Assembly: GCA_041650915.1 (NCBI GenBank)
Contig: JBAZKE010000002.1
Span: 80,638-144,637, forward strand
From: Patescibacteria group bacterium
GTDB lineage: Bacteria > Patescibacteriota > Patescibacteriia > UBA10025 > JAHIVO01
Length of the DNA: 64,000 nucleotides
Reading direction: 5' to 3'
The position numbers and the translations under genes were made by a program. Below are positions 1,852 through 45,564 of this stretch, piece by piece; the stretch's first letter is position 1; every line of letters begins with the position of its first letter. Under the pieces are notes generated by a model. That model made no database searches. It was not told where the DNA came from and was given only the letters and a program-made list of their open reading frames with translations.

Positions 1852-2118
1852 ATGCACTACCTATACATACTACACAGTAAAAAAGATGCAAACTTGTATG
1901 TTGGGACAACAAACAATGCCGAAAGAAGGCTTGCTGAGCATAATGCCGGGCAAGTAGCGTCAACAAAAAACCGCAGGCCTCTGGCAATCGTATATTTGAA
2001 ACCGTACCCAACAAAACGGGAAGCCGCTAAACAGGAATGGTTGATAAAACATACCCCCGGCGCCGGAAAAAATAAAAAAGACCTCATTAAACAGTATCAA
2101 CAAACCAAGCGCGCATAG
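1852..2118 (+). CDS. GIY-YIG nuclease family protein (UPF0213/YhbQ-like)
   Basis: HYLYILHSKKDANLYVGTTNNAERRLAEHNAG...RRPLAIVY...REAAKQEWLIK has the GIY-(10)-YIG core plus the conserved Arg and Glu. The stop codon overlaps the first 10 nt of tRNA-Lys. The upstream TTG-initiated extension lies in a GC-rich hairpin and is unlikely to be coding. Confidence 0.65.
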   Translation: MHYLYILHSKKDANLYVGTTNNAERRLAEHNAGQVASTKNRRPLAIVYLKPYPTKREAAKQEWLIKHTPGAGKNKKDLIKQYQQTKRA

Positions 2119-2181
2119 CTCAGCCGGTAGAGCAGTTGCCTCTTAAGCAAACGGTCGGGGGTTCGAATCCCTCTGCGCGCA
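2109..2181 (+). tRNA. tRNA-Lys (anticodon CTT)
   Basis: Acceptor GCGCGCA/TGCGCGC, D arm GCTC-AGCCGGTA-GAGC, anticodon loop CTCTTAA, T arm GGGGG-TTCGAAT-CCCTC, discriminator A. Confidence 0.85.
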
Positions 2182-2227
2182 TAGCAAAAGCACTCAGCAA
2201 AAACGAGCTGGGTGTTTTTGATTACCC
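2165..2227 (+). repeat. Direct repeat A: last 17 nt of tRNA-Lys plus 46 nt of 3' flank
   Basis: gaatccctctgcgcgcatagcaaaagcactcagcaaaaacgagctgggtgtttttgattaccc; repeated at 2328..2389. Confidence 0.8.
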
Positions 2228-2327
2228 GCAGACGTACTGCAAGCCGGGATTCGAACGGGCACGAACGAGGCGCAGCCGAGTGACAAACAATTCGAGCTTA
2301 CGCAGAATTGTTTGGTGCCCAGGACGA
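2228..2327 (+). repeat. tRNA-linked structured element, copy 1 (divergent member; 100-nt core between 62/63-nt direct repeats)
   Basis: Core starts GGGATTCGAACGGGCAC and ends GTGCCCAGGACGAGAATCCCTC. Closing helix GGGCAC/GTGCCC. Internal 11-bp hairpin ACAAACAATTC-GAGCTTACGCA-GAATTGTTTG. Same 5' and 3' signature as the elements at 11.8 kb and 37.7-38.0 kb. Confidence 0.55.
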
Positions 2328-2389
2328 GAATCCCTCTGCGCGCATAGCAAAAGCACTCAGCAAAAACGAGCTGGGTGTTTTGATTACCC
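2328..2389 (+). repeat. Direct repeat B (copy of tRNA-Lys 3' end plus flank)
   Basis: 62-nt copy of 2165..2227, differing by one T fewer. Confidence 0.8.
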
Positions 2390-2399
2390 ACTGGCAACA

Positions 2400-3215
2400 C
2401 TACACTGGCCGCAGCGTACTGGCCCACACCTGCCACGCGAGAAGCGACTTTGCGACGAGGCTCAAGATAATATACGCACGCTCGCCGTACAGGTAGTCGC
2501 GCCACTTGCCAACCTTCTTATACTGCAAGATCATGTTGACTGCGAAGGAATTGAAGAACAGGAAGATTGAGAAGTAAATCCAATACACGAACGCCGGCGC
2601 CTTTGCGTCGCCTTCCCCGGCCGTAAACAGGTAAAGCCCGACAACGATCCATGGCACAGCTCCCGCGAGCACGCCAAACCAGTATGAAGTCCAGTCGGTC
2701 TTTTCGGTCCGCTGGTTATGCAGCTCCATCATCCAGCCAAACAGGATCATCATCATATTCAAGAAAAAAATCATAACCAGCCCGAGGCCGTCGTAGAGGC
2801 CGGTGAGCATGGCGATAATCACAATCATGAGCGACGAGCTGAATGCGTACTCAATCCAGCGCGCAGGGTTGATTCCTCTTCTTAGGTTTGATGCGTACTT
2901 CCGGTAGCCTGCGGGCAGCGAAATGAGGAGATGGGCGAGCGCTGACAAAAACAGAAATGCCGCTACCATCGGGCCGAGCTGTACCGTAAATTCAGTCTTG
3001 AGCACCGGCTCTAACTTCAGAGATTGCCGATTCATTTCCACGAATGCGGAGGTAATCGGCAACGCGAAATCAGAGCTCAAAAAGAGCATCAGGAATCCCT
3101 GCACCGCATGCAGTGCAGCCATAATAATGTTGAACCGCCTGAGCTTACCGAATTTTGCTTCGTCTTGCTGCGGAATTGCATCCGCTGTCTGTTCATTTTC
3201 CATAGTGCTACGCAC
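2400..3215 (-). CDS. Heliorhodopsin
   Basis: Matches heliorhodopsin signature blocks across 7 TM helices: RWIEYAFSSSLMIVIIA, ILFGWMME, WFGVLAGAVPW, SIFLFFNSFA, LQYKKVGKW, YLYGERAYIILSLVAKSLLAWQ, the last containing the retinal Schiff-base Lys. 271 aa. Confidence 0.85.
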   Translation of the reverse strand: MRSTMENEQTADAIPQQDEAKFGKLRRFNIIMAALHAVQGFLMLFLSSDFALPITSAFVEMNRQSLKLEPVLKTEFTVQLGPMVAAFLFLSALAHLLISLPAGYRKYASNLRRGINPARWIEYAFSSSLMIVIIAMLTGLYDGLGLVMIFFLNMMMILFGWMMELHNQRTEKTDWTSYWFGVLAGAVPWIVVGLYLFTAGEGDAKAPAFVYWIYFSIFLFFNSFAVNMILQYKKVGKWRDYLYGERAYIILSLVAKSLLAWQVWASTLRPV

Positions 3216-3487
3216 AATAATGTTACATTCTAACTATATAGTTAACCGCGCTATAAAACAAGATCACTGGTTGGGTATTAAAATTCGTATCAGGTCCGAA
3301 ACCATCGTAACAAATAATCATCACACTCGTACGCTCCATCAACATTTGCCCATTGGACTGAATCCGTCTTCATGAAGAGTAGCCTTGAGGCTAACGGTAC
3401 CGGCATTTGAATATTTGTGCAAATCGTGCATTGTGATTACTCTCTAAAGTAGAGTATACTGACAGAGCTAATCTCTGCCGCTTTACT

Positions 3488-4618
3488 ATGAAAAAATGTA
3501 CCGTCATTGCACTCTCCGTGGTTCTCTTCCTGGCGCTTATCCCGGCGGTTGCCGCCGGGCAGCAGGATGACGAAATTTTTAAAGCCCGCGTGCTCGACAT
3601 TCTTGAAGAAAAAACGATAACGGATGAAATGGGTGAGTCGATCACGCTCCAGCGCCTTAAGCTGCGCGGGCTTGAGGGAACGTGGAAAGGCATGGAAATC
3701 GAATTTGACGGCACCGAGTACGAGGTCATGAGCGCCAATGAGTATGAGGCGGGTGACAAGGTCATGGTCGCGGCTTCCCGTGATGCGGAAGGCAACGACG
3801 TCTTCTACGTCACTGACCACGTGCGGCAGGGATCACTCTACTGGCTCGCGGCCATCTTTGCTACCGTCGTCGTGGCCATCGGCAGGCTCAAGGGAATGCG
3901 CGCGATCGCCGTGCTGGTTGCGTCATTTTTTATCATTTTAAAATTTATCATCCCGCTCATCCTGGACGGGAAGAGCCCGCTGCTCATCAGCATTATCGGA
4001 TCCGTCTTCATTCTCGTTATTGCCATCTACATCACCGAAGGATTCAAGCGCAGCTCAACGGTTGCCATCGGTGCCATTACGGTTTCGCTCCTCATTACCG
4101 GCTTCCTTTCCGTGTGGTTTACGAAGCTCGCGAGGCTCACCGGATACGCGAACGACGATGTATTTTTCCTCAAGAGCTCACTCGGCAGCGGCATCAATGT
4201 TGAGGGCCTGCTGCTCGCCGGCATTATTATCGGCGCGCTTGGCGTGCTCGATGACGTCGTCGTCGCGCAGATTGAAACGGTCAACCAGCTCACCGGGGCG
4301 AATCCCTCACTGAAAAAACGCGAGCTGTACGCGCGCGCCATGAAGGTCGGCGTGACCCACATGAGCGCGATGGTTAATACGCTTTTCCTCGCATACGCAG
4401 GCGCTTCACTGCCGCTCCTCATCCTCTTCAGCAACCGGCTCGAGGTGACATTCTCACAGGCGCTCAATAATGAGCTTATTGCAACAGAAATCGTACGTAC
4501 GGTCGCAGGAAGCATCGGCCTGATCCTCGCGGTGCCGCTCGCAACGCTGCTCGCGGTCCACTTCATTCGATCCAAAAAAATGAAGGTAAAAACCGCACCA
4601 GAGATCGCCTCCCAATAA
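3488..4618 (+). CDS. YibE/F-like integral membrane protein
   Basis: Signal/anchor followed by a ~110-aa extracytoplasmic domain and six or more TM helices. Overall YibE/F-like architecture; family assignment is tentative. Confidence 0.5.
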   Translation: MKKCTVIALSVVLFLALIPAVAAGQQDDEIFKARVLDILEEKTITDEMGESITLQRLKLRGLEGTWKGMEIEFDGTEYEVMSANEYEAGDKVMVAASRDAEGNDVFYVTDHVRQGSLYWLAAIFATVVVAIGRLKGMRAIAVLVASFFIILKFIIPLILDGKSPLLISIIGSVFILVIAIYITEGFKRSSTVAIGAITVSLLITGFLSVWFTKLARLTGYANDDVFFLKSSLGSGINVEGLLLAGIIIGALGVLDDVVVAQIETVNQLTGANPSLKKRELYARAMKVGVTHMSAMVNTLFLAYAGASLPLLILFSNRLEVTFSQALNNELIATEIVRTVAGSIGLILAVPLATLLAVHFIRSKKMKVKTAPEIASQ

Positions 4619-4673: not shown

Positions 4674-5051
4674 ATGGATTTTGTACGTGCGCTGCAAAAA
4701 GCAGGCTATAAATGCACCAAACCGCGCTTGGCGCTGCTGTCGCATTTTAAAAACAGTGCGTCCCCGCAAACCCCCCAGCAGATCCACCGTTCGGTCAAGC
4801 GGCAGGGAATTGATCTCACGACCGTTTACCGCACACTCGAGGTATTCAGAAAAGTGGGCATCGTATTCCGTGAAGAAATGATGAGCGAATCCCGATTCTT
4901 TTTGGCGGAAAAAGAACACCACCATATCATCTGCCGCACGTGCGGCACCATCAGGTGCCTCCCGTGCAATGTAAAGCTGCCGAAACCGAAAGGATTCTCA
5001 AAAATCAAGCACGCATTTACCCTGACCGGCATCTGCAGCGACTGCACATAA
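4674..5051 (+). CDS. zur: Fur-family metalloregulator, likely Zur
   Basis: MDFVRALQKAGYKCTKPRLALLSHF...TVYRTLEVFRKVGIV...HHHIIC..CG..CLPC: winged-helix DNA-binding region plus metal-site His and Cys. Sits directly upstream of a ZIP zinc transporter. Confidence 0.7.
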   Translation: MDFVRALQKAGYKCTKPRLALLSHFKNSASPQTPQQIHRSVKRQGIDLTTVYRTLEVFRKVGIVFREEMMSESRFFLAEKEHHHIICRTCGTIRCLPCNVKLPKPKGFSKIKHAFTLTGICSDCT

Positions 5052-5061
5052 CTAAAACAAT

Positions 5062-5811
5062 ATGACCACAACATGGCTCTACACCATCGGCAGCGTTCTC
5101 ATCGTCAGCCTCATATCGCTGATCGGATTGTTTACGCTCGCGATGAATCTCGACCGGCTGAAAAAAATACTCCTCCTACTCGTCAGCTTTGCGGCCGGTT
5201 CGCTGCTTGGGGGCGCATTCCTGCACCTCCTGCCGCACAGCATTGAGGAATCGGGTAACGTCGAGCTCACCGCCCTAATGATTCTCGCCGGTATCATACT
5301 TTTCCTCGTGCTCGAAAAAATACTCTGCTGGCGCCACTGCCACATACCAACATCAGAAGAGCACCCCCACCCGGTCGGCATCAACAACCTCATCGGCGAC
5401 GGCTTCCATAACCTCATCGATGGCATGATCATTGCTGGGTCCTATATGGTCAGCGTGCCGGTCGGCATCGCAACAACGATTGCGGTGCTGCTCCACGAAA
5501 TACCGCAGGAAATCGGCGACTTCGGCATCCTCATCCACGCCGGATACTCAAAAGCGAAAGCAATCTTCTTTAATTTCATTTCAGCGCTCACCGCCGTACT
5601 CGGCGCAGCCATGACTCTCCTCATCGGGACGTCAGTAGAGGAAACGCACCACTACCTGGTGCCCTTTACGATTGGCGGCTTCATTTATATCGCGACAGCA
5701 GACCTCATACCCGAGCTTAAAAAAGAAACAAACCTGAAAAAATCGATCACGCAGGTCATTGCACTCCTCTTCGGCATCAGCATCATGGGGCTGCTGCTCT
5801 TGCTCGAGTAG
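5062..5811 (+). CDS. zupT: ZIP-family zinc transporter (ZupT-like)
   Basis: HNLIDGM and HEIPQEIGDFGIL metal-binding motifs of the ZIP family; 8 TM; 249 aa. Confidence 0.8.
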   Translation: MTTTWLYTIGSVLIVSLISLIGLFTLAMNLDRLKKILLLLVSFAAGSLLGGAFLHLLPHSIEESGNVELTALMILAGIILFLVLEKILCWRHCHIPTSEEHPHPVGINNLIGDGFHNLIDGMIIAGSYMVSVPVGIATTIAVLLHEIPQEIGDFGILIHAGYSKAKAIFFNFISALTAVLGAAMTLLIGTSVEETHHYLVPFTIGGFIYIATADLIPELKKETNLKKSITQVIALLFGISIMGLLLLLE

Positions 5812-7080: not shown

Positions 7081-8706
7081 TTACACCTCCATGAAGTTTG
7101 CGTCCGAACACCGTATCGTGATCGGCGACGACGCCTTACTGAACGTGCGCTCATGGCGCTGGACATACGTCTTGCCGGGCGGAATCCTCCAGCCGCTTTT
7201 TGACCTGGCAAGCTCATGCGCCGTTTTACTTGCCGTATATCCATCAGGGAGCCGGCGAAACCGCGCACGCATGATTCGAACCTCATCGCGCCTGGCCTGC
7301 CGGATGCACCGGACCATGGAACATCCTGGAACGGCTTCGACACTGCGCTGTTCGTCATCGGAGCCGACCACGATCGCGTGGAGCGCATAGACGATGACAC
7401 ACAGCAATACTTCGCGCAGATACCCGAGATCGGATTCGTAGGCATTCTCAAGCACGTGGTCATTGACAATGAGCTGAAAATCGACAAGCTCAGCCGGAAA
7501 CCAGCAGAGCGCATACGCGTCCTTGCGGACGCCGATCTTCAAGCCGCAGTTCGGAAACTCATGCCCGTTCGGATAAAAGGCAACGGCACGAATCCCGGAA
7601 AACCGCAGCGCGCTCAGGTCAATTTCGACCCGATCATGCCCGTCGGGCAAGAGTTCGCACTGCACGTTGTCGCGGATCTCATCGCACATGCGCCGAAAGG
7701 CGGCTCGCAAATCGTTTTGTCGGTCCACAAACCGCTCCTTAAATGCCCGGCTCTCGCGATACATCCGATCCTTGCTGGCGCGGTCAGCCGTGATGAAGTC
7801 AACCAGCGGCTGCTCGCAGTCATCAGGAATGAGAATGTGAGGCTTCTGAAAATCAAACTGCCCTGGCACTGGTTCCGCCGCAACTGCGGACTCCCCCTGC
7901 CGTTCGTCCAGCCACGCGGGGGTATAGATGGCGATGCTCCGATTGAGCGACGCGAGCAACTCGAGTATGCCCCTCAAGTAGTCATCGACATCACGATCTC
8001 CCTTGCCGGCTGCCCGAATCAGATTAACGATCCACCGCTTCGACGAAAAAGCTTCATCACACGGCAACACGGCGGCCTGTATCGTGATTCTCGCGAACAA
8101 CGGCGGCCGCTGCCCAAAATAAGCGCTTTGCTTCGCTTCCGGAAGCGAGATGCCGTGCTCGATGGTGGAGCTGATCTCGCGAAACAGAAGCTCACAGAAC
8201 CGCTTGGTGTTCTCGATTGATTCGCCGATCGCCCTGAAGATGAAACCGGACGTTGCCGAACAAACGCATACATACTCACGCGAAACATTTTCTGCCGGAG
8301 TCATCGCGACCTCCAGTAGCGACAGATCCCCCTTCGCAAGGCTGCGAAGGGCAATCTTGGAAATCAACTCAACGTAGGCTGGCGTATCAATTCGCCCGGC
8401 GAGCTTGCAGTAGCGCTTCGCGACAAAATTGAGTATCTTCCTGAAAATGGCCCTGCAATCACCTCCCGATACGCTGCCGTCGCTCGTACCGAACATAGAC
8501 TCGTAGATGCCGCCAACGGCCTGATTGGACAACTCGCCCGTGCGTCCCGACAATACTTCCGCCAGAAAATTCCCCAGGATTTGGTTCGCGCCTCCATCGG
8601 CGTGATTGGTTCCCTTCTTTTTCTTGTTCCTGTTTTTGGAGCTCAAGGCAGCCCCTCCTTTCTCTCTCGATCTATATGTATATTCTATTTTCAATGTTCC
8701 GATCAC
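7081..8706 (-). CDS. Large orphan hypothetical protein, 541 aa
   Basis: Longest ORF in the region. Followed on its own strand by a hairpin plus U-tract terminator. No recognisable motifs; no Walker A, HD or CxxC. Low-complexity Lys-rich N-terminus, so the true start may be internal. Confidence 0.5.
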   Translation of the reverse strand: MIGTLKIEYTYRSREKGGAALSSKNRNKKKKGTNHADGGANQILGNFLAEVLSGRTGELSNQAVGGIYESMFGTSDGSVSGGDCRAIFRKILNFVAKRYCKLAGRIDTPAYVELISKIALRSLAKGDLSLLEVAMTPAENVSREYVCVCSATSGFIFRAIGESIENTKRFCELLFREISSTIEHGISLPEAKQSAYFGQRPPLFARITIQAAVLPCDEAFSSKRWIVNLIRAAGKGDRDVDDYLRGILELLASLNRSIAIYTPAWLDERQGESAVAAEPVPGQFDFQKPHILIPDDCEQPLVDFITADRASKDRMYRESRAFKERFVDRQNDLRAAFRRMCDEIRDNVQCELLPDGHDRVEIDLSALRFSGIRAVAFYPNGHEFPNCGLKIGVRKDAYALCWFPAELVDFQLIVNDHVLENAYESDLGYLREVLLCVIVYALHAIVVGSDDEQRSVEAVPGCSMVRCIRQARRDEVRIMRARFRRLPDGYTASKTAHELARSKSGWRIPPGKTYVQRHERTFSKASSPITIRCSDANFMEV

Positions 8707-8775
8707 CCAACGTACCAGAAAACGGACTCCCCGTCAAGTACAATCGCATTGATTATTCAGTACTTTTTCAGTACA

Positions 8776-10266
8776 ATGAAAGCACGGAACCGTATGCGTG
8801 CAATCCAAAACCTCCTCAGAAAAAAAGAGCTCTCGTTCATCCCGAAACTCCTCAAGCGGCTGCCGAGAGCCGAGCTCTTTTTGGTTGGCGGCATCATCCG
8901 CGATACGGCGGTGAAGCGTCCGTCAAAAGACTTCGACTTCGTTATCCGCAACGTCGGGGCAGCCAAACTCCAGTCGGAGCTCAAGAAGCTTGGGTGGGTT
9001 GACCTTGTCGGAAAGCGGTTCGGCGTATTCAAGTTTATCCCACAAGGCCTCACGCTCCCTGAACCGATCGATCTGGCGCTGCCGCGTACCGAGCATGCGC
9101 TCCTGACCGGCGGATACCGCGACTTCGACGTGCAATCAGACCCCAAGCTGCCCATTGAGCAGGACCTCATGCGCCGCGATTTTACCATCAATGCGATGGC
9201 ATACGACATCAGAGAGCAAAAGCTCATTGACCGGTTCGGCGGCATGCATGACATCAAAAAAAAGCTGATCAGGACGGTTGGCAAGCCCAACGAACGCTTT
9301 ACCGAAGATTTGTCCCGTATGCTCCGCGCGCTCCGGTTTGCGTCACAGCTGCACTTTTCAATCGAAACGCAAACCTGGCGCTCGCTCAAGAAGCTCAGCG
9401 CGCGCATCAACAAGCTCATCGCCGGAGAATACGTCGTACCGCGTGAAACCGTCGCACGCGAGCTGACAAAGGCGCTCACCGCAGATCCCGTATACGCAAT
9501 CGGGCTCCTCACAAAATCCGGCATCACCGAAAAGCTCATGCCTGAACTCATGAAGATGAAAGGGTGCCGGCAGCCGCGGAACTTCCACAGCGAGGGAGAC
9601 GTGTGGAAACATACGATGATTTGCATGCAAAACCTCTACTCAAATCCGTTCAAAAAAAAATTCGGCCCCGAGCCGCCCTCACCGGAACTCATCTACGCGG
9701 CGCTGCTCCACGATATCGGCAAACCGTACACGATAGAGCGGGCTGACCGGCTGCGGTTCAACAACCATGACGCCGTGGGGGCCGAGCTCTCAAAAAAAAT
9801 CCTATCGCGCCTGAGGATATCCTCGTCGGGCGTCGATACGGACCGGATCGTATGGCTCATACGGATGCACCTCATCACCACCCACTCCAAAAAATCACCA
9901 ATGAAAAAGACGACGCTCGAAAAATACTTTTTCAACGACCAACTGCCCGGAGGAGACCTGCTAAGGCTCCTGTACGCTGACGTGCAGGCGACGATCCCGC
10001 CGAGCGGCTGCCCGGATTTTACCGAGCACCATGCGCTCGAACAGCAGATAAAAAAACTCAGCCCGGAAGCACGCCACAGGCGTTCATTGCCGCCCGTGAT
10101 CATGGACGGCAATGAGATCATGCAGCAGCTCCGCATGGAACCGGGACCGGCCGTCGGGCAGCTCAAGACGCTCCTGCGCGAAGAGCAGCTCCGCGGCGGC
10201 CTCAAGACAAAAAAACAAGCAATGGAATTCCTCAAAAAGCATGCCAACATTCGACGTTACGCCTGA
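8776..10266 (+). CDS. cca: CCA-adding enzyme / poly(A) polymerase family tRNA nucleotidyltransferase with HD domain
   Basis: N-terminal PolyA_pol head (FLVGGIIRD, DFDF) and C-terminal HD domain (LLHDIGKP). Start placed at the internal MKARNRM. Confidence 0.8.
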   Translation: MKARNRMRAIQNLLRKKELSFIPKLLKRLPRAELFLVGGIIRDTAVKRPSKDFDFVIRNVGAAKLQSELKKLGWVDLVGKRFGVFKFIPQGLTLPEPIDLALPRTEHALLTGGYRDFDVQSDPKLPIEQDLMRRDFTINAMAYDIREQKLIDRFGGMHDIKKKLIRTVGKPNERFTEDLSRMLRALRFASQLHFSIETQTWRSLKKLSARINKLIAGEYVVPRETVARELTKALTADPVYAIGLLTKSGITEKLMPELMKMKGCRQPRNFHSEGDVWKHTMICMQNLYSNPFKKKFGPEPPSPELIYAALLHDIGKPYTIERADRLRFNNHDAVGAELSKKILSRLRISSSGVDTDRIVWLIRMHLITTHSKKSPMKKTTLEKYFFNDQLPGGDLLRLLYADVQATIPPSGCPDFTEHHALEQQIKKLSPEARHRRSLPPVIMDGNEIMQQLRMEPGPAVGQLKTLLREEQLRGGLKTKKQAMEFLKKHANIRRYA

Positions 10267-11707: not shown

Positions 11708-11783
11708 GGTGGCTATAGCACAATGGTTCGTGCACCGGTCTGTGGCACCGGCAATGAGGGTTCGATTCCCTCTAGCCACCCCA
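11708..11783 (+). tRNA. tRNA-His (anticodon GTG) with G-1, CCA encoded
   Basis: G-1 plus acceptor GTGGCTA/TAGCCAC, anticodon arm CCGGT-CTGTGGC-ACCGG, T arm GAGGG-TTCGATT-CCCTC, discriminator C. Confidence 0.85.
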
Positions 11784-11837
11784 GAAAAAGTTACGACACC
11801 CCTTGCGGGTGGCGGAACTTTTTTTGATATAACTTGA

Positions 11838-11970
11838 AGAGGGAATCGAACGGGCAGAAGCGACCCTGAACTTGATTCAGGGGAGCGCCGGCGAATGCAA
11901 GCTGGCGCAGCATTCGGCGCTGCCCAGGACAAGGCTCCGCAGGAGCCGCGATAATCCCCCGAGCCGCCCT
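11838..11970 (+). repeat. tRNA-linked structured element, copy 2
   Basis: GGGAATCGAACGGGCAGAAGCGACCC-[hairpin 1]-GGGGAGCGCCG-[27-nt hairpin 2]-CGCTGCCCAGGACA, then hairpin GGCTCC-gca-GGAGCC and a tRNA-3'-end-like tail GATAATCCCCCGAGCCGCCC. Lies 55 nt after tRNA-His. Confidence 0.6.
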
Positions 11971-37441: not shown

Positions 37442-37545
37442 CTCCCCCCTGAGATGCCCCAGCCGACAGCCGCTCCCCGCACGTTGCCGGCTTGATTTTC
37501 TTTAACGCCCGTGCTACCGTACCATGGTCGCCAACGCGCCCGTAG

Positions 37546-37612
37546 CTCAACTGGATAGAGCGTGTGGCTTCGGACCACAAGGTTGGGAGTTCAAGTCTCT
37601 CCGGGCGCACCA
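37546..37612 (+). tRNA. tRNA-Arg (anticodon TCG), CCA encoded
   Basis: Acceptor GCGCCCG/CGGGCGC, anticodon arm TGTGG-CTTCGGA-CCACA, T arm GGGAG-TTCAAGT-CTCTC. Confidence 0.8.
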
Positions 37613-37628
37613 TCCATGTATCAGTTGC

Positions 37629-37705
37629 GGGCAACTAGCTCAGTTGGTTAGAGCGTCTCGTTTACACCGAGAAGGTCGGGGGTTCGACTCCCTCGTTGCC
37701 CACCA
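37629..37705 (+). tRNA. tRNA-Val (anticodon TAC), CCA encoded
   Basis: Acceptor GGGCAAC/GTTGCCC, anticodon arm TCTCG-TTTACAC-CGAGA, T arm GGGGG-TTCGACT-CCCTC. Confidence 0.85.
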
Positions 37706-37863
37706 TAAACGATAGCGAACAGCAGCGACGTTTACAAAATATCAACAGTGCTAGTTGGCCGGCAGGAGTCGAAGGGCAGCAGCGACCCCAAAGGGGAGCG
37801 CCGATACGTGCGATGCAAAGAGCACGGATCGCTGCCCCGGGAAGACTCCCTCGTTGCCCACCA
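37706..37863 (+). repeat. tRNA-linked structured element, copy 3 (tandem unit 1; ends in a 20-nt copy of the tRNA-Val 3' end)
   Basis: Unit: 60-nt flank taaacgatagcgaac...gttggcc, then core GGCAGGAGTCGAAGGGCAGCAGCGACCC-caaa-GGGGAGCGCCG-[26-nt hairpin]-CGCTGCCCCGGGAA, then GACTCCCTCGTTGCCCACCA identical to the tRNA-Val 3' end. Confidence 0.7.
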
Positions 37864-38031
37864 TAAACGATAGCGAACGGCAGCGACGTTTACAAAATAT
37901 CAACAGTGCTGGTTGGCCGGCAGGAGTCGAAGGGCAGCAGCGACCCTGAGCTTGGCACAGGGGAGCGCCGGTGCGCGCGACCAGGAGAAGCGCGGACCGC
38001 TGCCCCGGGAAGACTCCCTCGTTGCCCACCA
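37864..38031 (+). repeat. tRNA-linked structured element, copy 4 (tandem unit 2)
   Basis: Near-identical to copy 3 in flank and scaffold. Hairpin 1 is extended (CCCTG-agcttggca-CAGGG). Hairpin 2 is completely different in sequence but has the same length (27 vs 26 nt) and pairing. Ends again in the tRNA-Val 3' 20 nt. Confidence 0.7.
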
Positions 38032-38058
38032 CTAACAAACAATTATTACCTGAATACT

Positions 38059-38310
38059 ATGAAGTACGTTATCGGCATCATCTGCATCGGCATCGGATTC
38101 GTCATCGTTTGGAAAGCTGACTGGATCATGAATAATGTCGGCCGGATCGCATGGGCTGATGAAAAGCTCGGCGCCGAAGGGGGGACGCGCCTCTTTTACA
38201 AGCTTATCGGCATCGTCATCATCGTGTTCTCGTTCCTGTACATGTCCGGTGCGCTCGAATCAATGCTCGGTGCGATATTCGGCACCACCATAGAAACGGT
38301 TGCAGAGTAA
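38059..38310 (+). CDS. Small two-TM membrane protein
   Basis: MKYVIGIICIGIGFVIVW...IGIVIIVFSFLYM; 83 aa. The upstream part of the reported ORF overlaps the repeat units and is not coding. Confidence 0.5.
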   Translation: MKYVIGIICIGIGFVIVWKADWIMNNVGRIAWADEKLGAEGGTRLFYKLIGIVIIVFSFLYMSGALESMLGAIFGTTIETVAE

Positions 38311-38315
38311 CCTGC

Positions 38316-38392
38316 GGGCCCGTAGTTCAGCTGGTTAGAACGCTTCATTTGCAATGAAGAGGTCAGCGGTTCGAATCCGCTCGGGTCCACCA
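38316..38392 (+). tRNA. tRNA-Ala (anticodon TGC), CCA encoded
   Basis: Acceptor GGGCCCG/CGGGTCC, anticodon arm CTTCA-TTTGCAA-TGAAG, T arm AGCGG-TTCGAAT-CCGCT. Confidence 0.85.
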
Positions 38393-38521
38393 CACGCTGC
38401 CGGGCCATGGGGAAATCAGCGGCGGTTTGTCGCACCGGTTCACGGGAGATCCGTCCGGAAAAATTCCCACAACGCCATTCAGGAGGCCGCACGTACGGCA
38501 GAGGCATGAGTCCACACAACC

Positions 38522-44616: not shown

Positions 44617-45564
44617 TTACCGCTTCAGCTCGACCACGTCGAGCGTATTATTGTACATGCTTGCTGTTGTTCCATCATCGGTGTTCCACCCGACCTGAAA
44701 TGTATGGTCGCCGGCTTCGACATCAACGAGCGCCGTGAAGGCGAGCGTAAACGTTTCATCGGCAGTATTGGAAGTCCCGCGACGAATCGTATGCGATACG
44801 ATGGAATCATCAACTACCAGGAAAATCCTGGCAGAACTGTTATTCGTATCGTTCGATAGCACGCCGCTGAACATGACGAGGGCAACGCTGTCTCCGGTGG
44901 TCATGTCGACCTCGGTTGTCAGGAGGTCATAATCGTCCGCGACCTCGGTTGTTGTCTGTGCCGCTGTTCCGCTATCCTCGGTCGCCTGTGTTACCGCGCT
45001 AGCCGCGAGTGCGGCTGTTCCGACCGCACCATCACCGATCGCAGCCGCCGTAACGGCATCGTCGGCAATCTGATCTGCGGTAATCGCATCGTCGGCAATC
45101 TGGTCTGCGGTAATCGCATCGTCGGCGACATTTGCAGTCGCTACGATGCCGTCACCTGAGAACGCAGTTGCGGTCAAGGTATCAACCGACAGATCGCCAA
45201 CCACCTCCATGTTATCGTTCACGATGAACGGCAGATCATCGGTTACTCCCGCCGTTGCCCCGCGGTACACGCGCCCGTCAATGCGGACATTGTCGCCAAA
45301 GGTAACCGGAATATCGCCACCTTCGCTGTCGGTCGTCTGATTGATGATCGTACCGTTAAAAAAAGTTACGCCACCGACTCCCTGCTCGCCGACCTTGAGC
45401 GCATCGACGAACATAATGCCGTCTACCTCAAAGTAGTCGCCGGCGACGCCGCCGAGCGTCGAGGTAACATTGTGGAGTGAAGCTGCCCGTACGATCCCCG
45501 CCGTGAGGGCAATCGATGCTACAACTACCATGGCGGCTGTAAGTGTTCGCTTCATTCGAATCAC
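44617..45564 (-). CDS. Secreted hypothetical protein (paralog B) with C-terminal DDAITADQIA repeats
   Basis: Signal peptide MKRTLTAAMVVVASIALTAGIVRA. N-terminal domain paralogous to 41708..42532, including a ~55-nt near-identical nucleotide stretch. Confidence 0.55.
   Translation of the reverse strand: MIRMKRTLTAAMVVVASIALTAGIVRAASLHNVTSTLGGVAGDYFEVDGIMFVDALKVGEQGVGGVTFFNGTIINQTTDSEGGDIPVTFGDNVRIDGRVYRGATAGVTDDLPFIVNDNMEVVGDLSVDTLTATAFSGDGIVATANVADDAITADQIADDAITADQIADDAVTAAAIGDGAVGTAALAASAVTQATEDSGTAAQTTTEVADDYDLLTTEVDMTTGDSVALVMFSGVLSNDTNNSSARIFLVVDDSIVSHTIRRGTSNTADETFTLAFTALVDVEAGDHTFQVGWNTDDGTTASMYNNTLDVVELKR

Follow-up and report, generated by a model that had tools for sequence, protein, structure and literature searches.

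What are the two folded units that follow a valine transfer RNA (tRNA) gene in the genome of a Patescibacteria group bacterium? We address this question for 64,000 nucleotides (nt) of contig JBAZKE010000002.1 (GenBank assembly GCA_041650915.1, positions 80,638 to 144,637 of the forward strand), referred to below as the window. An earlier note, made from the letters of the window, had described tandem structured units directly 3' of tRNA-Val and had proposed that they are either a guide- or spacer-like RNA module or a miniature mobile element targeting tRNA 3' ends. The feature is real and lineage-wide, and its structure is well supported. The units are members of an apparently undescribed family of small, folded, non-coding elements that is widespread in ultra-small Patescibacteria, and we tentatively read them as a mobile element that would dock on the T-loop sequence of tRNA genes. 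Related loci outside the window are cited by L-numbers (L010, L091 and so on).

The window holds seven tRNA genes, all on the + strand according to ARAGORN and Rfam. One of these, tRNA-Val(TAC) at 37629..37705 (Rfam tRNA, 71.1 bits), is intact, has its CCA encoded, and anchors an array of two units that lie head-to-tail directly 3' of it on the same strand. They occupy 37706-37863 (158 nt) and 37864-38031 (168 nt); the tandem arrangement given in the earlier note therefore stands and the common length of ~165 nt does not. Each unit consists of a leader or flank, F (37706..37763 and 37864..37921), a left arm with the core (37764..37843 and 37922..38011), and a right arm (37844..37863 and 38012..38031). 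The right arms had been described as the last 20 nt of the tRNA, and BLAST of the tRNA against the window found this to be exact in both units (20/20 in unit 1): they repeat GACTCCCTCGTTGCCCACCA, which is tRNA-Val nt 58-77, from the T-loop to CCA. The left arm, GGAGTCGAA, on which the earlier note had not remarked, is the reverse complement of the T-loop/T-stem sequence TTCGACTCC. Flank F is not repeated 3' of the second unit, and a promoter and terminator scan gave no promoter-like or terminator-like site from tRNA-Val through the end of unit 2.

The closed multi-helix scaffold that had been proposed by eye (GGAGTC with GACTCC, GGGCAGC with GCTGCCC) agrees with the predicted folds of both units, which have a GGAGUC/GACUCC outer helix, a GGGCAGC/GCUGCCC inner helix (P2) and two hairpins. 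Unit 1 had a fold energy z-score of -3.0 on the + strand and -1.8 on the - strand; for unit 2 the values were -2.0 (+) and -1.0 (-). In unit 1 the core is made up of P2, a hairpin 1 of CCCC-AAA-GGGG with GA/GA on both sides, and hairpin 2, without a third hairpin; the scaffold of unit 2 is the same. Hairpin 1 does vary between the units, as had been noted, in that unit 2 carries a 9-nt extension. For hairpin 2 the reported lengths (26 and 27 nt) are right, and the description of the two versions as completely unrelated is not: they align, are homologous, and differ by two compensatory transition pairs (A-U to G-C and U-A to C-G), a further single change at a mismatch, and a diverged loop. Divergence between the two units is a mosaic. 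The leaders, 97% identical in pairwise alignment, differ at 2 of ~58 aligned positions, the scaffold segments GGAGTCGAAGGGCAGCAGCGACC, GGGGAGCGCCG and CGCTGCCCCGGGAAGACTCC show no difference at all, hairpin 2 is ~65% identical overall, and hairpin 1 has its 9-nt insertion; the near-identity of flank and scaffold stated in the earlier note is thus upheld. Such a mosaic is not explained by uniform divergence following a tandem duplication.

The wider family was sought with patterns and with a covariance model. An exact pattern taken from the copies 3' of tRNA-His and tRNA-Lys in the window, run over one-genome-per-species GTDB contigs, gave 53 loci, 40 of them real. These matches fall mostly in metagenome-assembled genomes (MAGs) of Patescibacteria or the candidate phyla radiation (CPR), namely Moran-, Kerfeld-, Uhr-, Komeili- and Doudnabacteria and the Parcubacteria group, with a few in MAGs whose labels, Gammaproteobacteria or Bdellovibrionales, are unconfirmed. 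The same exact pattern had no match in IMG/VR, and a slightly relaxed pattern matched 93 metagenome stretches. Because the pattern contains 'TCGAAC', the apparent invariance of this string is partly ascertainment bias. Forty sequences, the four window copies among them, went into the covariance model, R1, which has 125 positions and 42 pairs. Searched against both strands of the window, it gave exactly four matches, all on the + strand and each directly 3' of a tRNA: one in each Val unit (37764-37850, 54.2 bits, and 37922-38018, 55.2 bits) and one each at the His and Lys loci, where scaffold copies had also been reported by eye. Units therefore adjoin three of the seven tRNAs of the window (Val, His, Lys). 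The window copies are in the seed and match by construction; the independent point is that nothing else matched in the 128 kb of strand searched. Four tRNA-adjoining matches are far beyond chance expectation.

Elsewhere R1 found 43 copies in genome loci and 66 in metagenome loci, 109 in all, and the element thus extends well beyond the four copies first seen. The position next to tRNA 3' ends, remarked on in the earlier note, also holds at most related loci. In the genome set nearly every true match lies 25-150 nt 3' of a tRNA on the same strand, and in the metagenome set a same-strand tRNA was found within 200 nt (median 60 nt) for 44 of 80 pattern matches, 66 of which are true. The upstream tRNAs are Glu, Gln, Gly, Ser, His, Lys, Arg, Tyr, Trp, Met, Asn, Asp, Ala and Thr, to which the window adds Val. 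With the first metagenome pattern, nothing closely related to the Val-type unit came back. Exact-protein look-ups aimed at strain variants of the window returned the source contig (ENA ERZ27247363 k141_1619091) and one 3.5-kb Logan contig outside the Val locus.

No known RNA family accounts for the units, in agreement with the failure to recognise one by eye. At the gathering score of Rfam 15 only tRNAs matched in the window, and at E <= 10 nothing meaningful lay over the units (window 37500-38450; L017 3700-4420). On eight related loci only tRNAs were matched, together with one unrelated LOOT RNA (RF03000, 81.7 bits) at L123 6669-6788 on the - strand, ~1.1 kb from two tandem units. Neither ARAGORN nor Rfam called a tRNA- or transfer-messenger RNA (tmRNA)-like cloverleaf, or an acceptor plus T-arm, in the units. 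Full-text literature searches gave no description of the element; the closest papers, PMC13011429, on group I introns at position 35/36 of CPR tRNAs, and PMC12045711, do not cover it.

The copies share a common anatomy. On the tRNA-sense strand the usual order is tRNA, F, left arm (L), core, right arm (R). F, between the tRNA and L, is usually an intrinsic-terminator-like hairpin. L is the reverse complement of tRNA nt ~53-65 and is followed by a 'CGAAC' junction and by P2 (GGGCAG/CUGCCC), which is essentially invariant and closes a three-way junction. Hairpin 1 begins with 2 bp and a tandem GA/GA before its stem; hairpin 2 has ~10 bp with one A·G and often a GA/GA close to the tip, and leads into an 'AGGACAA' junction; hairpin 3, with one closing pair, a GA/GA and a stem, is often present but is missing in the Val and Lys copies of the window and in L024 and L030. 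A 'GCG(G/A)A' junction connects hairpin 3 to R, which is the tRNA sequence from nt 56-58 to the discriminator or CCA. L and R form a helix, P1, that clamps the core. Since R equals the tRNA 3' end, the 3' half of the tRNA, F and L together form one long palindrome centred on the terminator loop. Elements measure ~90-150 nt with a core of ~70-110 nt, and the whole insert is ~100-230 bp and contains no genes.

Base-pair covariation over more than 100 copies is strong, and the suggestion that a conserved scaffold undergoes compensatory change was well founded. Two alignments were tested, the seed, A2, and A3, which holds 62 distinct sequences aligned to the model and so leans towards the model structure. 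Standard pairs filled 87.6% of paired cells in A2 (70.6% in shuffles) and 89.2% in A3 (69.4%), and cells changed on both sides numbered 264 in A2 (86 in shuffles) and 467 in A3 (142). The covariation score was 0.374 in A2 (shuffles 0.130, slid partners 0.05-0.08) and 0.429 in A3 (shuffles 0.136, slid partners 0.05-0.07). In neither alignment were the observed values reached by any of 500 shuffles. All top column pairs by mutual information are pairs of the proposed helices; the same analysis gave no sign of a pseudoknot, with no long-range covariation beyond the nested helices. Tandem G·A occurs in all three hairpins, and the G·A positions become Watson-Crick pairs in a minority of sequences. 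The core structure is under selection. The tRNA-sense strand is favoured because of the three tandem-G·A modules and the better fold energies on that strand, and the fold may act as RNA or as single-stranded DNA (ssDNA).

In both arms the sequence follows the tRNA next door. At almost every locus BLAST finds an inverted copy of ~nt 52-66 and a direct copy of ~nt 57-76 of the tRNA, and the reverse complement of L aligns to the tRNA from G53, over 9-20 nt, in 30/30 loci examined. The two arms are conserved to very different degrees. R is 93% identical to tRNA nt 61-72, with 68% of right arms perfect, whereas L matches the same positions at chance level (0.58 against 0.56; R against L, Wilcoxon p = 2e-11). 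P1 therefore typically has 8-12 bp, and the acceptor 3' strand, with CCA where present, stays single-stranded as a tail; the Val units show this arrangement. At loci without an encoded CCA, R runs into the genomic flank instead, which indicates that R is copied from genomic DNA and not from mature tRNA. The duplication can also reach beyond the tRNA: when the 40 nt that follow R are compared with the 40 nt that follow the tRNA, identity is 70-100% in ~20/76 units (100% at 5 loci), the Lys locus of the window among them, and in the remaining units R is followed by a different hairpin or by unrelated sequence. The duplications start in the T-loop and span 17-72 nt. The arms are of local origin, from the neighbouring tRNA.

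Three other explanations of the arms and junctions were tried and set aside. A retro-copy of mature tRNA, in the manner of a primer binding site, is ruled out by the way in which R follows the genomic flank where CCA is not encoded. A mimic of the acceptor-stem minihelix was considered on account of pairing over 15-19 bp at a few loci (L017, L022, L045), but across the family L matches nt 61-72 at chance. A tmRNA-like domain was suggested by the resemblance of 'GGAUUCGAAC...AGGAC' to the ends of E. coli tmRNA; the 5' and 3' sequences of a real CPR tmRNA (L029) are unrelated, and no covariance model gave support.

Within single genomes the units behave as repeated elements. In MAG ELA292 the cores at Gly, Ser, Glu and Lys are 75-88% identical to one another and in MAG C12 bin 87 those at Arg and Glu are 90% identical, and when the units of these two genomes are compared with cores that adjoin the same tRNA species in other genomes, identity falls to 37-59%. 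Tandem arrays of mixed core subtypes occur at L091, L097 and L012. The L091 variant (~3470-3580), subtype B, has P2 as GGGCGC/GCGCCC, keeps the same arm/core/arm logic and stands in tandem with a standard unit; GCCGAC-type cores, also in tandem with standard units, lie at L097 ~8790-8950 and at L012 7560-7670 on the - strand. R1 does not detect these cores, and the superfamily is thus broader than counted here.

A few loci depart from the usual arrangement. In L010, a unit at 2090-2160 (- strand) that follows a normal one consists of L, a 29-nt hairpin and R, without the standard core. The same locus contains, at 5200-5480 (+) and ahead of the intact tRNA-Gly, a core joined to a fragment from the 5' part of tRNA-Gly (nt 1-49); its P1, GAAAAGG(G)TC with GACCTTTTC, has reversed arm polarity, the tRNA-derived arm standing on the left and its complement on the right. 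The unit at L039 1375-1552 lies away from any tRNA, is identical to the L033 unit of the same MAG, is preceded only by the last 9 nt of tRNA-His (GCCACCCCA) and a terminator, and ends in the same 9 nt; it could have arisen by transposition, or be a variant of strain or assembly. The motif AAAATAGGTTCG(G/T)A(T/C)TT(G/C)GT...CATACCA occurs 100-200 nt upstream of units in L005, L059, L063, L071 and L085, which have tRNA-Glu-like right arms and at which no tRNA is detectable and Rfam has no match. In L098, L123 and L125 another motif, GTTCCAACTTCGTCCCA..CCCCAAC, lies ahead of the units. Both kinds of site may be unusual or interrupted tRNA genes.

The reading that we rank first, and to which we give somewhat less than even likelihood, is that the units are a selfish, non-autonomous mobile element whose docking site is the universally conserved T-loop and which takes up a copy of the tRNA 3' end as it inserts; the miniature mobile element targeting tRNA 3' ends that the earlier note had proposed is thus also placed first here. 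The element would enter immediately 3' of a tRNA gene, its junctions falling within T-loop sequence. In the process the target would supply a copy of its tRNA 3' end, in many cases along with the terminator flank; this would leave the tRNA gene intact and make both arms match the local tRNA. Repeated insertion at one tRNA would then give tandem arrays such as the two Val units, and the structured core would be recognised by trans-acting machinery or by an RNA or ssDNA intermediate. The reading builds on what is observed: the anatomy, the covariation, the distribution of the family, arms that derive from the local tRNA, and cores that are alike across tRNA species within a genome; mobility, the copying step and the active nucleic acid (RNA or ssDNA) are what we infer beyond them. 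It is preferred because it would explain the matched arms, the spread of cores across tRNAs, the tandem and mixed arrays, and the undamaged tRNA together.

Several results weigh against docking and copying. ORF (open reading frame) clusters within ~2.5 kb of units were surveyed at 39 and then at 114 loci, with only the top clusters annotated with Pfam, and in these no transposase, integrase, reverse transcriptase or nuclease, RNA-guided nucleases included, was recurrent; the co-occurring integrase, reverse transcriptase or nuclease gene for which the earlier note had advised a search was thus not encountered. No pair of empty and filled sites was found, the tRNA-Arg loci of L027 and L038 being too diverged. 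The lack of a repeated F after the second Val unit means that a simple rule by which each insertion duplicates the tRNA 3' end plus F misfits the Val locus. The counts of G·U against A·C, 42 vs 37, favour neither strand and neither nucleic acid. At the orthologous tRNA-Glu loci of three genomes all keep the unit, with the same slightly imperfect L and a perfectly conserved R; hairpin differences are structure-preserving and the terminator flank diverges. This retention looks like long-term purifying selection and would fit a host-useful RNA as well or better. Finally, we know of no transposition mechanism that makes both an inverted and a direct copy of its target.

The alternative of most weight, although we consider it unlikely, is a host-useful family of small RNAs that mimic the tRNA 3' end. 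Such an RNA would be transcribed with its tRNA, as at the Val locus, or by read-through, and with a P1-clamped core and a free acceptor-3'-strand/CCA tail it would serve as surrogate, decoy or partner for T-arm and 3'-end factors such as processing enzymes, the CCA-adding enzyme, toxins or modification enzymes. Besides the orthologous loci, with their compensatory stem changes, diverging terminator flank and R identical to the tRNA, this is favoured by the persistence of covariation and of invariant junction nucleotides over deep CPR lineages, by the far better conservation of R, including its unpaired acceptor part, than of L, by the tandem G·A motifs of the three hairpins, replaceable by Watson-Crick pairs, on the tRNA-sense strand, and by the Val units, which have no intervening terminator-like site. 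Yet only three of the seven tRNAs of the window carry a unit and copy number varies, most loci have a terminator-like hairpin between tRNA and unit with no space for a promoter of the unit's own, and both the core similarity across tRNA species within a genome and the mixed-subtype arrays resemble the dynamics of repeated elements. Those same arrays also speak for a quite improbable scheme in which a tyrosine integrase mobilises a miniature integrative element in trans, like a cis-mobilizable element (CIME). Here a circular form composed of tRNA 3' end, flank, left arm and core would recombine with the T-loop of a tRNA gene, the element-borne 3' end would complete the tRNA, what had been its 3' end would be pushed aside and left as the right arm, and tandem integration would yield arrays. 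An identity block from the T-loop (nt 56-58) to the tRNA 3' end, as present here, is reportedly, from Williams in 2002, the classical signature of integrase sites in tRNA genes; F at the Val locus behaves as a part of the element, unrepeated after the last R, and the graded identity of the flanks after tRNA and after R would fit a difference between donor and recipient. However, no integrase recurs among the ORF clusters within ~2.5 kb at the 114 loci or among the window ORFs scanned, and an exact duplication of the flank is seen at the Lys locus as well as at another four or five. Integration into another tRNA species would moreover give a chimeric, dead tRNA, but near-identical cores stand at four tRNA species of one genome with their arms perfectly re-matched, and arm sites of an integrase leave the base-pair covariation unexplained.

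Complementarity between L and the tRNA also invites catalytic readings. That the units are a new functional, possibly catalytic, RNA class, seems quite doubtful to us. With a guide arm that is programmable and complementary to the T-loop, and with a tRNA 3' end of its own, such an RNA would act on the cognate tRNA; it might, for instance, swap or repair the 3' segment of the tRNA, or template its own spread through an RNA intermediate, as a natural analogue of a trans-splicing ribozyme. More doubtful still is a specific version, a 3'-exon donor or 'half-intron', in which L would be an internal guide pairing on both sides of a junction in the T-loop (nt 53-57 and 58-65) and the core would catalyse or assist the exchange of the tRNA 3' end for R, for repair, replacement or removal of read-through. 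L is indeed complementary to tRNA nt 53-57, which its own R lacks, and to nt 58-65, a layout like P1 plus P10 of a group I guide, and R is kept identical to the tRNA 3' end even where unpaired. The order guide, structured core, 3' exon is that of engineered trans-splicing ribozymes, said to go back to Sullenger and Cech in 1994. Against this, the putative 5' splice site lacks a U·G pair and the 3' exon is not preceded by G, the start of tRNA identity varies from nt 56 to 58, the core has only ~70-110 nt and no pseudoknot signal, Rfam models of group I introns and small ribozymes had no match at E <= 10, and the invariance of 'TCGAAC' is partly ascertainment bias, with subtype B (L091) lacking that complementarity. 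The guide- or spacer-like module of the earlier note, in which the variable hairpins would hold target information as in CRISPR (clustered regularly interspaced short palindromic repeats), TIGR (tandem interspaced guide RNA) or bridge-RNA systems, or the tRNA-derived 3' tail would guide a TnpB/IscB-like nuclease, fares much worse and is highly improbable. A TnpB omega-RNA consists of a scaffold and then a 3' guide taken from flanking DNA, and the units likewise have a scaffold followed by ~19 nt of flanking-target sequence. TIGR-Tas systems do exist in CPR, but TIGR units are of 36 nt with dual single-stranded spacers (PMC12045711) and unlike these. The variable segments are self-complementary, covarying stems rather than single-stranded guides; the protospacer check gave no exact match in IMG/VR for either hairpin; no TnpB, IscB, Tas or Cas gene is recurrent near units; and a tail-guided nuclease would cut the adjoining intact tRNA gene. 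The only near-match of a hairpin within the window, at 4685-4705 with 3 mismatches inside an ORF that reads as Fur-like by eye, is treated as a coincidence. That the units are plain debris from tandem duplication at the tRNA locus, comparable to the repeats found after E. coli tyrT, is scarcely credible. Direct repeats do hold the tRNA 3' end and at some loci the flank too, but the same core, invariant junction nucleotides and covarying helices follow at least 15 tRNA species at more than 100 loci in many lineages, and debris is excluded because the core is conserved and covarying.

The two remaining copies of the window adjoin tRNA-His and tRNA-Lys. The His unit (11838..11969, + strand; covariance model match 11841-11958, 95.6 bits; BLAST 14/14 inverted) is anchored by tRNA-His(GTG) at 11709..11783 (+, ARAGORN) and separated from it by a terminator-like hairpin at 11784-11830 (+). 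Its left arm (11838-11851), AGAGGGAATCGAAC, is the reverse complement of tRNA-His nt 52-65, hairpins 1, 2 and 3 are all present in the core, and the right arm (11950-11969) is degenerate, with ~15/20 positions identical to the tRNA-His 3' end. At the Lys locus, tRNA-Lys(CTT) (2109-2181, ARAGORN) and its 46-nt terminator flank (2182-2227) together span 2109..2227 (+), and the unit follows at 2246..2344 (+; covariance model match 2246-2334, 69.4 bits; BLAST). The left arm (2246-2256), GGGATTCGAAC, is the reverse complement of tRNA-Lys nt 53-63, the core is without hairpin 3, and the right arm (2328-2344) is an exact copy of nt 57-73. A second copy of the terminator flank, with one T fewer, lies at 2345..2389 (+; 97% identity over 40 nt), so that the last 17 nt of the tRNA and 45-46 nt of terminator flank are duplicated here (2182-2227 vs 2345-2389), an extent that the earlier note had not recorded.

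The annotated genes of the window are ordinary cellular ones: heliorhodopsin, a P-type ATPase, PilB, a candidate CCA-adding enzyme and a pseudouridine synthase. Directly after the Lys unit, and on the strand opposite to it, comes the heliorhodopsin gene (2400-3215, - strand); the candidate gene for the CCA-adding enzyme (PolyA_pol head plus HD domain; 8581-10266, +) lies ~1.3 kb upstream of a tRNA-Leu/His pair. A 30-nt tandem repeat (2.4 copies, 97% identity, 45056-45126) is contained in a - strand ORF at 44617-45564. None of the 20 window ORFs scanned is a recombinase, nor is one recurrent near units in the 114 loci; no large recurrent neighbour ORF was found at the 39 or 114 loci, in a survey that did not include a TnpB-specific search. 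Recurrent neighbours are only of the synteny type (HSP20, TsaD, VanW, a sigma factor), with one family, a small GIY-YIG gene just upstream of the tRNA, recurring at a fixed short distance. As a partner of the units it is set aside, being equally frequent at tRNAs without them (7/72 with units vs 3/67 without, p = 0.33), and we treat it as a separate phenomenon.

In most cases a degenerating copy of the 5' part of that tRNA, with GC-rich mini-hairpins scattered through it, stands ahead of the GIY-YIG gene. The window shows this at 1761-2100, just before its intact tRNA-Lys: the first 21 nt of tRNA-Lys (1761-1781), two GC-rich hairpins with AAA loops and then GIY-YIG, as a frameshifted, decayed small ORF at 1852-2097. 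The layout of 5' pseudo-tRNA, GIY-YIG gene and intact tRNA is also seen in L019, L022, L023 and L030, and the pseudo-tRNAs end at the D-loop, the variable region or the T-loop. The mini-hairpins are short, perfect and GC-rich, for example TCCGCC-N3-4-GGCGGA, TGCGCC-AAA-GGCGCA and CCTGCC-TACC-GGCAGG, and sit in the D-, anticodon- and T-loops of pseudo-tRNAs, in right arms, and as hairpin 3 of units. They occur in L022 (upstream of tRNA-Glu 1803-1878), L030 (upstream of tRNA-Gln 1947), L019, L009, L034, L017 and L038; the identical TCCGCC-stem hairpin recurs across genomes and contexts, and such hairpins are ~3-fold more numerous than in block shuffles (378 vs 128). They may represent a separate class of mini-palindromic insertions.

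The family presents an RNA motif of ~130 nt with more than 100 examples, supported by covariation and containing two three-way junctions and three tandem-G·A modules. The tRNA T-loop is the most conserved sequence in biology, and if the docking reading is true the reduced genomes of Patescibacteria carry tiny structured elements that exploit it without harming the tRNA. Were the arms truly copied from the target at insertion, this would be a mode of transposition of which we know no description. The built-in copy of the tRNA 3' end lends itself to biochemistry, including processing by RNase P and RNase Z, CCA addition, self-cleavage or ligation, and the search for protein partners. For annotation, partial tRNA copies and palindromes in CPR MAGs could mislead tRNA counts, genomic-island prediction and assembly.

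Among known systems, integrative elements of tRNA genes and CIMEs share with the units an intact tRNA, a direct repeat from T-loop to 3' end beyond the insert, and tandem arrays. The attL/attR-like direct repeats are exact copies of 17-20 nt from tRNA nt 57-58 onwards at the Val and Lys loci of the window and are seen at nearly all related loci. The units differ from CIMEs in being ~100-230 bp long and geneless, with a covarying RNA-like core and an inverted T-loop/T-stem copy, in the duplication of the terminator flank at about a quarter of loci, and in having no recurrent integrase nearby; the same core also stands at many tRNA species of a genome, and in ELA292 and C12 bin 87 it does not follow the one-lineage-one-tRNA habit of CIMEs. 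Miniature inverted-repeat transposable elements (MITEs) and REPINs (doublets of repetitive extragenic palindromic sequences forming hairpins) are likewise small, non-coding, multi-copy, hairpin-forming, intergenic and presumably mobilised in trans. Their inverted repeats are fixed termini, however, whereas those of the units come from the local tRNA and vary with it; in place of a short fixed target-site duplication there are duplications of 17-72 nt, and the units are tied strictly to tRNA 3' ends and contain conserved internal junctions and tandem G·A.

Group I introns and trans-splicing ribozymes resemble the units in the succession of a 5' guide-like segment, a structured core and a 3' 'exon', with the guide complementary to both sides of the T-loop junction, and group I introns are known in the T-loop of the tmRNA gene (mentioned in PMC13011429). 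Unlike these introns, the units have no U·G, omega-G, P3-P9 core or pseudoknot: at the T-loop junction every pair is Watson-Crick, and R is preceded by A. They have a core about half the size of the smallest group I introns, have no match to the Rfam intron model (RF00028), and follow a tRNA that is already complete, usually with a terminator between. The omega-RNA of IS200/IS605 elements (TnpB) is comparable in joining a scaffold to a flank-derived 3' segment, but the target matching that segment, the intact tRNA, stands immediately upstream of the unit, which speaks against nuclease guidance. From CRISPR, TIGR and bridge-RNA systems the units are set apart by covarying stems in place of spacers, hairpins without an exact IMG/VR match, the lack of a recurrent effector, and an architecture different from that of TIGR. 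In E. coli, head-to-tail repeats directly follow the tyrT gene, each ending in the 3'-terminal nucleotides of tRNA-Tyr. Those repeats are a duplication at a single locus, whereas the units described here carry a conserved, structured core over many tRNA species and genomes.

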